DNA of 64,000 nt from an uncultured Gammaproteobacteria bacterium (GCA_964536515.1 CAZHXI010000002.1:60908-124907), one strand, 5' to 3'; numbered from the stretch's first letter, positions 57,253-64,000 are shown. Translations and numbers: made by a program. Notes: generated by a model not told the origin, from the sequence alone.

Positions 57253-57873
57253 TCAATGTGTTTCCGTTCCTGCAGTGAGGCGGCCGTACTCGTCGAAGAG
57301 AGGGCGGGGTTTGGTGAAGTCGACTAGCTCAGGGTGCTCCCACCAGAATTCGATGGGGAAATCATCTGTGGTTACCTGAGCCTTTGTTCTATTGGAACAA
57401 TACTTTGTCATAACCAACCAGAGCTCATCATCAATCTTATCGAGTAGCTCGAGACTCCCTGCATCTACTTGAATGTGCTGTGATTCTCGAAGTAGCCACT
57501 GGATATCCGAACGTAAATCAATCACTTCCTCTAAATCGAAATCTGCGTCTGCGGGCCAATCCTTAGCGAAGCCTACGTGTCGCTCCAATCGAGCTAACAG
57601 CTGTAGGTATCCATTCTTCAACTCCTCCCCCAAACTCGCCATCTGATTTAACTTTTCCTTAAACACGATCGCGATCTCTGTAAAACCTCTTTGGACGTCG
57701 GCAGCACACCACGTGATGGCGAATTTGCCGCGAGCATATGCGATAACCGCCTGAAGGATCGGCTTCAACTCATAGTCGTTTCGAACTGCCAGCTCGTCGT
57801 CCAAATAGGAGACCAGTAGTCGCGTACTCTCTCGAACTATCGCTGAAGAACGCTCCCGCTTATCGTACGCCAT
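57253..57873 (-). CDS. Candidate immunity protein for the orphan Rhs C-terminal toxin
   Basis: Start overlaps the 3' end of the orphan toxin ORF by 14 nt (translational coupling); acidic. Confidence 0.4.
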   Translation of the reverse strand: MAYDKRERSSAIVRESTRLLVSYLDDELAVRNDYELKPILQAVIAYARGKFAITWCAADVQRGFTEIAIVFKEKLNQMASLGEELKNGYLQLLARLERHVGFAKDWPADADFDLEEVIDLRSDIQWLLRESQHIQVDAGSLELLDKIDDELWLVMTKYCSNRTKAQVTTDDFPIEFWWEHPELVDFTKPRPLFDEYGRLTAGTETH

Positions 57874-59137
57874 ATGATTGTTTGTATGTTTCGAGGTAAT
57901 TAGGAGCTATGACACCATACGAAGCATCTGGATTCGTAGGGTCTAACCTGTTGCCAACTGTATTGCCACTCTTGAAGGGAAAGACAGACCCAATTGTACC
58001 ATCGGGCTCAACGAACACACCAATATTTCGATCTTTATCAACTTTCAGTAGATTCAATTTCTCTCCATTTTTTCCAAAGCCCAAATAATATGCATAGTTA
58101 CCGTTTGTGGAGTCAGCTATTTCGTTACCCAACTTCCTTAGCTCGTCCGCCCCTCTTACGTTGATGCCAGCTGCGCGGAAGTCAGCACGGTGCCTACTGA
58201 AATGCCAATTCAAATTCTTGAATGGTCTGAGGCCGTCTGCTGATCGCACAGGCCTTAGCGCGGTCGATGCATCGATCGCCCTATCTATAGCTCTTACAGC
58301 CTTCCCCCCGTACTTCACCGCATCGGCCACGTCGTCCACGGGCGAGAAGGTTAGAGCTGCGAAGGCTACCGCCATCCCCTTGTCGAGGCCCGTGGCGTTC
58401 GGGTCGGTGAATGCGGTATGGACGTCCCTCGCGGTCGCGTACGCGTCGTACGCCTGCCAGGCGAGGTAGGCGCCCATGATCAGGAACGGAATAAAGTTGC
58501 CATCCGGGTCGGTGTACTTCACCGGATTATTGGCCGCGTAGGCGTACGGGTGCAGGTACCGCCAGGGGTCTGCCAGTATCCCCTGCAGGTTCCGCTGGCC
58601 CTGGAGCTGGAGGGTCAGGGGGTCGATTTGGGTGAACCTGGCGGACGTCGGATCATAGTACCTCGCCCCGAAGTAGTACCAGGAACTCGGGTCTAATTCC
58701 TTGCCGGTGTAGGAGCGCGCGGGGAGGGGCAGGTCGCCGTTCAGCTTATCGAAGCGGCGGAGGCCGTAGGGCTCCTGGTCCACGGCCGAGGCCAGGTCGC
58801 CGGACTGGCCCGTTCCCAGGGGCGACGAGCCCAGGGCGTCCGGGTGCAGGTACTGGACCGCGGGCGGCTGGGACTTGGGGATGGTCACCTGGGCCAGGCG
58901 CCTGCCGGGGGCGTCCAGGAAGAGGCGGGCGTCGCCGCTATCGTCCTCCTCGTAGGTGCCGGCGTAGTAGGTTACGGACGGGTCCAGCTCGTCCCCCACC
59001 ACGTCGTGCGTGCGGAGGGCGCGCTGGCCGGCGTGGTCGTACGAGATTGAAAAGATAGTCTTCTGGGATGAGAAAATAATGGTCTGCGGCTCGGTGCCGG
59101 TGAAATCACCGGATGGCGAGAGCAAGGTGGAGTTCAA
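57860..59137 (-). CDS. Orphan Rhs C-terminal cassette: partial RHS core (homology arm) plus alternative toxin domain
   Basis: The first ~30 aa are unique, then YDHAGQRALRTHDVVGDELDPSVTYY...DPxGL-like ...YTDPDGN, near-identical to the main Rhs. The last ~215 aa are a distinct toxin tip. Confidence 0.6.
   Translation of the reverse strand: MNSTLLSPSGDFTGTEPQTIIFSSQKTIFSISYDHAGQRALRTHDVVGDELDPSVTYYAGTYEEDDSGDARLFLDAPGRRLAQVTIPKSQPPAVQYLHPDALGSSPLGTGQSGDLASAVDQEPYGLRRFDKLNGDLPLPARSYTGKELDPSSWYYFGARYYDPTSARFTQIDPLTLQLQGQRNLQGILADPWRYLHPYAYAANNPVKYTDPDGNFIPFLIMGAYLAWQAYDAYATARDVHTAFTDPNATGLDKGMAVAFAALTFSPVDDVADAVKYGGKAVRAIDRAIDASTALRPVRSADGLRPFKNLNWHFSRHRADFRAAGINVRGADELRKLGNEIADSTNGNYAYYLGFGKNGEKLNLLKVDKDRNIGVFVEPDGTIGSVFPFKSGNTVGNRLDPTNPDASYGVIAPNYLETYKQSYGVR
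58524..59044. repeat. ~520-bp direct repeat, copy in orphan cassette (near-identical to 60537-61057)
   Basis: Aligned by eye. Identity is highest at 58640-59040 (about 95%) and decays toward the toxin-tip junction. Confidence 0.7.
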
Positions 59138-62800: not shown

Positions 62801-64000
62801 CAGCCTGCCCTGCCCGTCGTAGGTAAACTCGCGGGTGTTGCCGCCTGGGTCCTGCATGTCCGTCAGCCTACCGGCGGCATCCCAGGTGTAGCTGTACGTT
62901 ATTGGCTGGCTGTTGAGCCAACGGGTTACACGCACCAGCCGCCCCTGGCCGTCACGCTCCTGCTCGGCTACTCGGCCCAACGCATCTGTTACACGTGTAA
63001 CCAAACCGTCATAAGCCACGGATGTGTTCCCCGCCGGGGCGTAGACATTGGTAACGCGACCGGCTGGATCGTACGCGTAGGTGGTGCTGGGCACGCCAGA
63101 GGCGGGCGCGGCGTAGCTGCTGCCAGACCCACGGTACGGCAAGCTCTGCCGCGCTACCCTGCCCCGCGAGTCGTACAACGTGTCGCTGACGATGTACGTA
63201 GACGTCGCCTCCAGCGCCCGAGTCTGGATGACCCGACCCGCGCCGTCTGCGTAGGTGAAGTCAATGCTCGGATCCAAATCTTGAACTCCGTCGAAGGCCT
63301 CGTGGCGTACCCATACCGGACGGGCGCTGTCGCCGTAGCTCCACCGCTCTGCCAGTACAGTCCCCGGTGCGTCCGGATTCTGGATCCAGCGCTCCAGCGG
63401 CCGGCCGAAGCCATCGCGGATCCAACGCTCGTTGGAGCCGTTGGCATCGGTGCTGCTGGCCACCTGCCGCGTGGCTAGGTCTACCTGCTGCAGGCTGGTC
63501 TGGCCCAGCGGATTCGTGCTCGCCGTAGGTACCAGGTGGTACGTAGGGTCGTAGCTGAAGGTGGTGGTTGCCCCGCGCGGGTCGCTGCTCGCGGCCACGT
63601 TGGCGTAGCTGTCGTACGTGGCGTACACCGCGCTGCTCGGCAGCTTGTCTTCCACCCTGGTGGGCTTACCCTGGCTCACCTGGCCCAGGGGCAGCCCGTC
63701 GTAGCGGATCTCCTTCTCGGCAATGGTTCCCTGGAATAGATCGCCCACTAAGGTGAGTTGTGGCGCGCCCAATATATGCATTGAGCTGGAGGCGTAGCTG
63801 TACGACTGTATGCTCTGATCATTTCCCAAATCGCCGTTGATGAAGCCGTTGCCAAAATTAACATCGGCGATGCCATGGGTACGGGTCTCGTACTCATTGC
63901 CATTCGTAATGTCGTAGTACCGCTCTACGCCAGTGGCCGTATAGGACCCATCCGATTCGCGCACGAATGATGACGTCATACCCGGAAAAACGAACATTCT
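59855..64000 (-). CDS. Rhs/YD-repeat polymorphic toxin (N-terminus beyond window) with internal LamG-like domain and C-terminal toxin tip
   Basis: Many YD repeats (YxYDxxGR..). RHS core end ...PYAYASNNPLTNVDLEGN. LamG/ConA-like segment about aa 555-770 (about 61690-62335). C-terminal ~210 aa unique. The frame stays open to the window edge. Confidence 0.8.
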   Translation of the reverse strand, partial: RMFVFPGMTSSFVRESDGSYTATGVERYYDITNGNEYETRTHGIADVNFGNGFINGDLGNDQSIQSYSYASSSMHILGAPQLTLVGDLFQGTIAEKEIRYDGLPLGQVSQGKPTRVEDKLPSSAVYATYDSYANVAASSDPRGATTTFSYDPTYHLVPTASTNPLGQTSLQQVDLATRQVASSTDANGSNERWIRDGFGRPLERWIQNPDAPGTVLAERWSYGDSARPVWVRHEAFDGVQDLDPSIDFTYADGAGRVIQTRALEATSTYIVSDTLYDSRGRVARQSLPYRGSGSSYAAPASGVPSTTYAYDPAGRVTNVYAPAGNTSVAYDGLVTRVTDALGRVAEQERDGQGRLVRVTRWLNSQPITYSYTWDAAGRLTDMQDPGGNTREFTYDGQGRLLTQTDWHATSSVPDVWAYAYDAAGNVTSSTDPRGATTHYTYDSLNRPLTANDPSTAGTDTTYSYDHTGSFGVGRLREAIHRNVGTTYGYDRLGRTTYVSRNIAGARFDQEYRFDLPGREVLRVEPSNSHVSSSYDRLGRWAETTYRPNASVTSTATTTTSALSFSGLQYVEVPENDTLDATSTLTVEAWVSYGSNAPANGAYTLVSKGNVQVSYGGNYLFQIDGNDKLLFHARIWGGNEWITRYAQSTVTLGDAGTGWHHYAFTYDLANGQVKFFRDGQQLGDARSFGWTLVPNNSWLRLGWAYDDTPGNESLIGGLAGVRIWQTVRTPSQIAATYNQPLLAQAGLVGYWAMNEATGTTLADLSLSGNNGTLASGSAPSWQSGGPQRQVVIPIPELRIATALSYTPLGQLESVVYGNGLVTRDTYTPADGYRLARRTTGEEGSYMQDLSYTYDAVGNVTHLVDASVEPLGSDRTFAYDALDRLVGVQGTYAGSEDASSTFSYDSLGNMRTRGDANLYRLGYNSHPYRASHATVGGDGLMGFLWDDAGNLVEVGSNLYAYDGFGRLGTSTYWAGEEGYRDTYLYDHAGQRALRTHDVVGDELDPSVTYYLGTYEEDDTGDARLFLDAPGRRLAQVSIPKSQPPAVQYLHPDALGSSPLGTGQSGDLASAVDQDPYGLRRFEKLNGDLPLPARSYTGKELDPSSWYYFGARYYQPDMARFTQIDPLTLQLQSQRNLQGILADPWRYLHPYAYASNNPLTNVDLEGNFSIKAALAHAGAFISGFVQRASQGLSVLNQVNKNPIGVGQEMAIQNMANVDAASAAIVSDPGGTAKAVAKGVEKKFNDFMAKPSLEQVAIVGALTAGGIETATLGKVGGAAGTEGAVSRSSAMRMYSARELNRRIDGRDLLYHNFPESFDDVIMGEGAVKTTPSYFNKSRPGYSNDSRMYTMPGSINGVNGIYEIATRPSLSGALELVMHRFFRPQP
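60537..61057. repeat. ~520-bp direct repeat, copy in main Rhs gene
   Basis: See 58524-59044. Confidence 0.7.

Follow-up and report, generated by a model that had tools for sequence, protein, structure and literature searches.

A probable main/orphan Rhs polymorphic toxin locus with a candidate immunity gene for each tip in an uncultured gammaproteobacterium

Overview of the Locus

A 64,000-nt stretch of DNA from an uncultured Gammaproteobacteria bacterium (GCA_964536515.1 CAZHXI010000002.1:60908-124907; the whole stretch is referred to as the window) probably carries a polymorphic toxin locus of the Rhs type on the chromosome, in which a main gene and an orphan C-terminal cassette are each paired with a candidate immunity gene. 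The main rhs gene ends in a variable C-terminal region (tip 1) and is followed by a small gene (imm1). The orphan open reading frame (ORF) downstream repeats the end of the Rhs core, diverges into a different tip (tip 2), and overlaps its own small gene (imm2). A locus of this kind had been proposed from the sequence before any database search; that original prediction fits all of the sequence and comparative evidence, and its elements are all present on the minus strand at about the coordinates it gave. The gene architecture, the repeat of the core, the linkage between tip 1 and imm1, the foreign composition of the cassettes, and the lack of a match in family libraries and the PDB are observed here. 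Main and orphan rhs architecture is textbook knowledge (PMC3150448, PMC3967940) and conceptually nothing new; what is new is the toxin families within the known architecture. Tip 1 and imm1 form a defined, testable family pair that is present in at least 38 species and missing from Pfam, NCBIfam, and the PDB.

Every gene of the rhs locus is on the minus strand, and positions are those of the window. The features, with the evidence for each, are as follows.

59855-64000, continuing past the window end (-): main rhs gene, 3' portion of 4.1 kb with 1380 visible codons (ORF list and end sequence)
61802-62305 (-): Laminin_G_3 (concanavalin-like) domain within the RHS-repeat region (PF13385, E 3.4e-19, residues 565-732 of the visible ORF)
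60509-60736 (-): Rhs-associated core (aspartyl-protease plug region) of the main gene (TIGR03696, 3.5e-14, residues 1088-1162)
60158-60508 (-): tip 1 linker, about 117 aa, Ala/Gly-rich and mildly hydrophobic (translation)
59858-60157 (-): tip 1 predicted toxin domain, about 100 aa, of the HNFP...Y...G.YEI..R.S.G..E...HRFF family (homologues, alignment A5)
59273-59836 (-): imm1, 187-aa acidic protein, predicted immunity partner of tip 1 (downstream synteny in 37/40 loci)
59218-59241 (-): G+C-rich hairpin with a 10-bp stem and a UUCG loop, just past imm1 (sequence and fold)
57860-59137 (-): orphan rhs-CT ORF, 425 codons (opens after the TAG at 59147-59149)
58493-59041 (-): repeated core segment of the orphan, ending in ...NNPVKYTDPDGN (matches 60506-61054 of the main gene)
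58250-58495 (-): tip 2 linker, 82 aa, hydrophobic/amphipathic (64% identity to residues 2109-2188 of the homologue P0029, described below)
57863-58249 (-): tip 2 toxin-candidate domain, 129 aa, containing WHFSRHRADF (position, charge, and composition)
57253-57873 (-): imm2, 206-aa acidic ORF, candidate immunity gene for tip 2 (14-nt overlap with the orphan stop)
54974-57221 (-): four packed same-strand ORFs of 85, 128, 239, and 264 aa (ORF list and isoelectric point)

Tip 1 Domain Family and imm1

The small gene that had been noticed after the main rhs gene is a 187-aa ORF, imm1, which starts 18 nt past the main rhs stop. A search of 5.8 billion proteins retrieved 10 relatives of tip 1, which share just its last ~100 residues; the tip 1 linker is not common to the homologues. 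An alignment-based scan of 185,579 species-representative genomes located the domain at 38 loci. These are distributed over roughly eight phyla or candidate phyla, with Planctomycetota, Actinomycetota, Bacteroidota, Myxococcota, Pseudomonadota, Chloroflexota, Verrucomicrobiota, and Entotheonella represented as well as candidate phyla. The domain is always C-terminal, and it is found on three types of carrier: large RHS proteins with SpvB, DUF6531, or TIG domains (the largest 3452 aa or more), pretoxin-HINT proteins, and short ORFs of 91-372 aa, some of which lie just 3' of an RHS core (loci L002 and L032).

The assignment of imm1 as immunity partner has strong genomic support. A homologue of imm1 is the next gene on the same strand at 35 of the 38 genome loci and at both of two metagenome loci (37 of 40 independent loci in total); of the three exceptions, one is the most divergent member and the other two are partial matches. 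The imm1 homologues are 24-50% identical, and the gap between toxin and partner ranges from -11 to +15 nt, often as a 4-nt overlap. Pairwise divergence of toxin and partner is correlated (r = 0.39), a value reached by 0 of 2000 permutations. The partner comes after the toxin domain irrespective of the type of carrier, and imm1 is therefore better read as an immunity protein than as a chaperone of a delivery domain. The toxin domains of both tips are basic (isoelectric point (pI) 9.5 for tip 1 and 9.4 for tip 2), their partners are acidic (pI 4.6 for imm1 and 4.8 for imm2), and the N-termini of imm1 and imm2, judged by eye only, are unlike a signal peptide. On this comparative evidence, tip 1 and imm1 are a predicted cognate toxin/immunity pair, and tip 1 is a predicted mobile toxin module.

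These proteins are absent from the family libraries searched and from the PDB. Neither tip had a match in Pfam, NCBIfam, PADLOC, PHROGs, or PDB sequences, and neither tip nor downstream protein matched any toxin or immunity profile of Pfam and NCBIfam, even at E <=10. All downstream ORFs were also scanned against PADLOC and PHROGs, where the one relevant hit was that of the 239-aa ORF to an unannotated PHROG, described below. The 37 relatives of tip 1 (alignment A5) and 33 relatives of imm1 (alignment A4) also had no match in Pfam or NCBIfam, and PDB searches with single sequences and with profiles A1, A4, and A5 gave none. The earlier statement that neither tip belongs to a recognisable toxin family is thus upheld, and the profile searches suggested at that time as a check matched both tips to no toxin family and to no non-toxic family.

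One of the loci with a tip 1 family member (L019, in the metagenome-assembled genome Azotimanducaceae, OZ241900.1) has four Rhs core ends within 20 kb, near 4733, 9107, 11470, and 15280. These belong to arrayed rhs genes or orphans, the tip 1 family member among them.

Structure prediction had also been suggested as a check, and an AlphaFold2 model of tip 1 was obtained (predicted local distance difference test (pLDDT) 82, predicted TM-score (pTM) 0.72). In the model, one short strand is followed by two helices and then by four long, antiparallel strands (beta-alpha-alpha-beta4). In A5, residues N27, F28, P29, G67, H93, and F96 are invariant, and H26, Y63, E77, R81, E89, and R94 reach 90% conservation or more. 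Within the model, neighbouring strands carry E77, R81, E89, H93, and R94, and H26 is between the two helices. The placement is like that in small microbial ribonucleases (RNases), which is suggestive without being diagnostic. Our best guess is that tip 1 is a small, metal-independent RNase-like enzyme, based on its size, its charge, the alpha-alpha-beta4 topology of the model, and the near-invariant His, Glu, Arg, and His-Arg residues. We have modest confidence that tip 1 works like a small nuclease-type toxin, and we assign it to no existing family. Time and again, small toxin domains of this kind have proved to be novel nucleases or enzymes of practical use.

Main rhs Gene and Its Closest Homologue

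The main rhs gene runs off the window, because the codon ahead of the first ATG of the visible ORF is AGA and not a stop. RHS repeats were detected in the visible ORF in seven stretches (PF05593, 5.5e-44, Pfam scan), together with a YD_repeat_2x match (TIGR01643, 1.2e-24, NCBIfam scan). Main gene and orphan both contain RHS repeats, and in both an Rhs-associated core domain (TIGR03696) directly precedes the variable tip. The core of the main gene ends in RFTQIDPLTL, followed by 33 aa, VDLEGN, and the tip; the boundary is ...NNPLTNVDLEGN. A unique tip of about 210 aa had been described after an NVDLEGN-type boundary, and the tip found there is 217 aa (60508-59858). Both motifs quoted for it, YHNFPESFDD and GYSNDSRMY, are in the translation.

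A canonical Rhs protein carries a pair of DPxGL-type motifs; the catalytic Asp belongs to the second, and the cleavage site comes next (PMC8636562). Main gene and orphan both have IDPLTL as their first motif. The second is TDPDGN in the orphan, in which D-P-x-G is kept, and VDLEGN in the main gene, in which the Asp and Gly are kept and the Pro is lost.

The closest full-length homologue of the main Rhs protein is P0029 (2312 aa), which is 65% identical to it over 1190 aa. Its domains are, in order, SpvB, FG-GAP, TcdB_toxin_midN, RHS, LamG, a linker shared with tip 2, and an EndoU toxin. By analogy, the N-terminus of the main Rhs protein is probably SpvB/TcdB-mid-like, as in P0029 (a TcB-TcC-like fusion). 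P0029 comes from a related organism, in which the neighbouring ATP-grasp gene is 79% identical to the one in the window. At the P0029 locus, the same Rhs carries an EndoU tip and is followed by another downstream gene and no orphan, indicating that the tip varies at this site. No TcA-like gene was found within 8 kb on either side of P0029, and no secretion gene was found among the ten other large ORFs of the window that were scanned. The Laminin_G_3 insertion amid the RHS repeats is also present in P0029, and it might be an externally displayed binding domain.

Orphan ORF and Core Repeat

The orphan ORF begins 135 nt after imm1 with a TTG start, and its 32 leading codons are unrelated to rhs. 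Residues 33-215 then match residues 982-1164 of the main protein with 91% identity (167/183, E 4e-114). A repeat of the last part of the core was therefore found where it had been described, at 183 aa where ~170 had been estimated. The Rhs_assc_core domain of the orphan (8.6e-17) covers residues 140-213, and the share of the core retained comes to only 183 residues. In nucleotide terms, 59041-58523 and 61054-60536 are 90.4% identical over 520 nt, with a sharp 5' edge and exact runs of 50, 45, 38, and 35 nt. This repeat is far beyond chance. Its identity is 94-96% on the 5' side and drops to 72-78% near the tip. Over 182 aligned codons there are 35 synonymous and 16 non-synonymous differences; because most are synonymous, the divergence arose under purifying selection. 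No further core fragments were found downstream of 57253.

The core of the orphan ends in ...YTDPDGN, after which 211 residues are unrelated to the main tip. A divergent tip of about 215 aa had been described here, and the one after ...NNPVKYTDPDGN agrees with this in length and contains the sequence that had been quoted for it (LNWHFSRHRADF).

The hairpin at 59218-59241 has a folding energy of -31.3 kcal/mol (z = -3.4). The U-tract of the hairpin is weak, and the consensus scan missed it. As a terminator or stabiliser, the hairpin may separate the main operon from the orphan. The promoter and terminator consensus scan gave no enrichment over shuffled sequence. There is no Shine-Dalgarno sequence ahead of the orphan, and most housekeeping genes in the window are also without one; because this genome rarely shows one, its absence from the orphan is uninformative. 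The orphan protein (P0016) was missing from its own representative-based search because its 90%-identity cluster is represented by an unrelated 48-aa fragment (P0017), which is apparently a database clustering artefact.

Tip 2 and imm2

The gene described as overlapping the orphan downstream is imm2, which encodes 206 aa and overlaps the orphan stop by 14 nt. By architecture only, tip 2 and imm2 are toxin and immunity candidates: their frames are intact, they overlap by 14 nt, a basic product is paired with an acidic one, their composition is foreign, and they occupy the standard position of an orphan. An exhaustive phmmer search of 1.84 billion cluster representatives with tip 2 retrieved P0029 alone, at 64% identity and over the first 81 residues only. 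Overall, pair 2 has no detectable relative among ~15 billion public proteins. It thus represents a candidate pair without relatives that illustrates toxin swapping downstream of the classical DPxG boundary. The single-sequence AlphaFold2 model of tip 2 (pLDDT 38) was unusable for fold search.

We considered whether the two cassettes are distant relatives of each other, and this was rejected; tip 2 and imm2 are unrelated to tip 1 and imm1. Tip 2 has an H-x-x-x-H spacing like that of H44/H48 in PT1, which we take to be no more than a resemblance. The ~80-aa linker after DPDGN is common to two Rhs proteins with different toxins (tip 2 and EndoU), and it may have a role of its own, such as membrane entry.

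Codon Composition and History

G+C content at third codon positions (GC3) was computed in windows of 50 codons and over whole segments. GC3 is 0.92-0.96 in both copies of the core. In the main gene it falls to 0.70 in the window spanning the boundary and then to 0.62, 0.58, and 0.50-0.56. The orphan keeps a GC3 of 0.86 over the first ~35 codons beyond its boundary, with values of 0.64, 0.56, and 0.38 thereafter. By segment, GC3 is 0.58-0.70 in the tip 1 linker, 0.50-0.56 in the tip 1 toxin domain, and 0.38-0.56 in the tip 2 toxin-candidate domain. GC3 is 0.77 over the whole tip 2 linker and 0.42-0.64 in the immunity genes. The drop in GC3 indicates that the toxin domains and their partners are imports. 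By comparison, the tip 2 linker looks native, because its early codon use is like that of the core and because it is shared with P0029.

The orphan boundary (YAYAANNPVKYTDPDGNFIP) matches that of the relative's P0029 better than the main boundary (YAYASNNPLTNVDLEGNFS) does. The simplest history would be that the tip 1 cassette came with a bit of its own core end and displaced an earlier tip downstream. Displacement is the classical model for orphan cassettes (PMC3150448, PMC3967940). Because the composition of the orphan breaks only after ~80 aa of native linker, toxin swapping at a second junction is also indicated; the tip 2 toxin would have been swapped in earlier, at this junction past the linker.

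Low G+C content in this part of the window is not limited to the cassettes. It is 0.48-0.56 over ~8 kb (50000-58000), including the BioF-like, ATP-grasp, and 5' histidine-kinase regions, and about 0.63-0.68 both in the RHS core and towards the 3' end of the kinase gene, so that the low-GC tract exceeds the toxin cassettes.

Surrounding Genes

The four ORFs that follow imm2 (54974-57221) encode three acidic proteins (pI 4.7-5.6) and one hydrophobic membrane protein, none of which has a Pfam or PDB match. They may represent an island of orphan immunity genes. Near-identical copies of the 239- and 264-aa proteins are present on short JGI metagenome contigs. In the 239-aa ORF (55774-56493, -), residues 2-84, which are Cys-rich (CGCFYC...CPKC), match phrog_30788 (E 2.6e-21), a phage protein family without annotation.

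Downstream of the Rhs gene, the variable region is flanked by an MvdD-type ATP-grasp gene at 53156-54103 (-) (PF21068, microviridin-like ligase family). Its counterpart on a related metagenome contig (L042:22204-22939) is 79% identical, and the 5-7 kb between rhs and the ATP-grasp gene are wholly different in the window and in L042.

Elsewhere in the window, two tandem paralogues of cofactor-independent phosphoglycerate mutase (iPGM_N + Metalloenzyme) are located at 37358-38944 and 38946-40544 (-), beside enolase. Large ORFs without a Pfam match at E <=1e-6 are located at 7194-11009 (-), 28360-30711 (+), and 42211-44085 (+), and encode 1271, 783, and 624 aa, respectively. Shine-Dalgarno sequences are rare before the confident genes of the window, and several starts directly follow CCT (...aggcctATG, ...ttacctATG). 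These start-codon contexts suggest unusual or leaderless-type initiation.

Discussion

Rhs proteins package a toxic C-terminal region within a shell, and the locus can be read in these terms. The RHS/YD-repeat region of the main protein would build a shell enclosing the C-terminal tip (PMC8636562), and the aspartyl-protease plug would cut the tip free at the ...VDLEGN boundary, after the second DPxGL-type motif. The freed tip would poison the cytoplasm of the recipient cell. Tip 1 would consist of a linker and a basic toxin domain of ~100 aa, whose family would have spread by horizontal transfer across many phyla, and imm1 would be a cytoplasmic immunity protein that guards the producer, most likely by binding and blocking tip 1. 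The downstream orphan would be a silent spare cassette composed of 183 core codons, a lineage-native linker, an unrelated toxin candidate, and a candidate immunity gene belonging to it. Homologous recombination between the two copies of the 520-nt repeat, probably following a tandem duplication as in Salmonella LT2, would join tip 2 to the main gene and switch the deployed toxin, and imm2 could meanwhile protect against kin already deploying tip 2. In this model, toxicity, neutralisation, autoproteolysis, recombination, the delivery route, and RNase activity are what we infer.

Several points weigh against this reading. Every step of the mechanism relies on sequence and on established Rhs biology. 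In the main gene, the second protease motif is a degenerate DLEGN in place of DPxGL, and the spacing between the two motifs is 33 residues compared with the canonical 17. The N-terminus of the Rhs protein and any secretion genes fall outside the window. A Foldseek search with the tip 1 model found no significant neighbour in the PDB and BFVD; the best PDB match had an E of 0.38, and the BECR toxin CdiA-CT Kp342 matched with an E of 2 and a TM-score of 0.35. The best viral match (BFVD) had an E of 0.085 and a TM-score of 0.52, and the top viral matches are 'LPD3' polyvalent proteins, to which no function is assigned (PMC5512222). Comparison of the tip 1 profile with YoeB and RelE found nothing, in what is a weak test. 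In pair 2, the last 129 residues of tip 2 have no homologue among the 1.84 billion representatives, the 5.8 billion proteins, or the metagenome scan, and imm2 finds only itself in the word-indexed 5.8 billion proteins and the metagenome scan. Because both are without homologues, comparative genomics cannot confirm the functions of tip 2 and imm2, and tip 2 could be decaying.

The lack of a fold or profile match makes the assignment of tip 1 as an RNase weak. Tip 1 may be a toxin that acts otherwise, for example as a new-fold deoxyribonuclease (DNase) or as an enzyme with another cytoplasmic target, and we consider this a real possibility, if short of an even chance. The missing similarity to RNase families speaks for it, and new-fold DNases with a conserved His are known among short polymorphic-toxin domains, such as PT1 and PT7 from a systematic screen (bioRxiv 10.1101/2021.10.19.465003). 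However, the domain is very small (~95 aa), no metal-chelating cluster of Cys, His, and Asp is apparent, the near-invariant residues are on or beside neighbouring strands of the model, and PT1 and PT7 were not retrieved by the PDB sequence searches. Another type of rival concerns the target cell. The main Rhs protein could be a Tc-toxin-like BC component used against eukaryotic cells, with downstream genes that are chaperones or unrelated. P0029 has SpvB and TcdB_toxin_midN domains, which are typical of TcB, and a LamG domain is inserted in the RHS-repeat region. We nevertheless regard this as very improbable: homologues of imm1 accompany the toxin on unrelated carriers (37/40 loci), a pattern that marks immunity and not a chaperone specific to one carrier; the 8 kb on either side of P0029 contain no TcA-like gene; and interbacterial systems are where one typically sees orphan cassettes paired with partner genes.

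Two further rivals concern the present function of the orphan. It could be a displaced relic without present function, with tip 2 on its way to becoming a pseudogene and imm2 kept, at most, to protect against relatives in which that toxin is still deployed. Several observations favour this: the toxin part of tip 2 and imm2 are without a homologue anywhere searched, the ORF starts with TTG after 32 unrelated codons, and a strong hairpin parts it from the main operon. In addition, its boundary and linker (YTDPDGNFIP...) resemble those of the relative's main gene, and it may be the former resident tip, displaced when tip 1 came in. We consider decay unlikely, however, since no stop interrupts the 425 codons of the orphan, imm2 likewise keeps an intact frame of 206 codons with its 14-nt overlap, the basic/acidic charge pairing is kept, and core differences are mostly synonymous. 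Equally start-less orphans of Salmonella work after recombination (PMC3967940). The pairs, the orphan especially, could also act additionally or mainly inside the producer, as type II toxin-antitoxin-like modules expressed from internal promoters or starts. Such activity has been shown for main and orphan rhs pairs of Salmonella (PMC7043789), an in-frame ATG (Met222, ...FLIMGAY...) is present 7 codons past the orphan boundary, and no delivery genes are visible in the window. We find this role improbable, because consensus promoter sites are no commoner than in shuffled sequence and because relatives of tip 1 occur on large carriers of secreted type in many phyla, which points to delivery as the primary role.

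Delivery of tip 1 to other bacteria, with imm1 as its immunity protein and the orphan as a spare cassette, therefore remains our preferred reading. A bolder version would hold that tip 2 is a functional toxin with an unseen fold and activity, that imm2 is its specific inhibitor, and that tip 1 and imm1 are a widespread family with a new mechanism, as opposed to a diverged RNase; we offer this version as tentative and on the doubtful side.

Several known systems are similar to this locus. The PT1-PT9 toxins and PIM proteins are short C-terminal domains without a Pfam family, found on RHS and other carriers with syntenic immunity genes (bioRxiv 10.1101/2021.10.19.465003), as are the proteins described here, and the logic of their discovery was the one applied here. 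They were compared by description, and the PDB, where the PT1 and PT7 complexes should be present, gave no match in sequence searches. Tip 1 is also similar to tips of the BECR fold (barnase, EndoU, colicin E5-D, RelE), which are ~100 aa and basic, have an acidic cytoplasmic partner, and share the alpha-alpha-beta4 topology predicted for tip 1 as well as conserved His, Glu, and Arg residues. Unlike these, it has no significant Foldseek or profile match, and BECR is used as a working analogy and not as a family assignment. TcB-TcC (BC) components of Tc toxins and SpvB/TcdB polymorphic toxins share the RHS shell with an aspartyl-protease plug; in contrast to Tc BC, the immunity genes and the orphan cassette here point to bacterial targets, and the RHS-repeat region has a LamG insertion.

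Orphan cdiA-CT/cdiI and rhs-CT/rhsI modules (PMC3150448) are tandem displaced cassettes with homology to the 3' core of the main gene, as in the window. The difference is that the composition of the orphan breaks here after the ~80-aa linker and not at the DPxG boundary. The closest parallel is Salmonella Typhimurium LT2, where the main gene STM0291 and the orphan STM0292 with rhsI share a 522-bp, 95% repeat and recombination between main and orphan was demonstrated (PMC3967940). The window differs from LT2 in its organism, in its toxins, which are both unrelated to those of Salmonella and are known here from sequence alone, and in its carrier, which is probably of the SpvB/TcdB-mid type and not an Rhs linked to PAAR/VgrG of the type VI secretion system. 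The arrangement itself is the same in both: a full-length rhs gene with its tip and immunity gene, followed by a start-less downstream fragment with a core repeat of ~520 nt (90% identical here), a different tip, and its own immunity gene.

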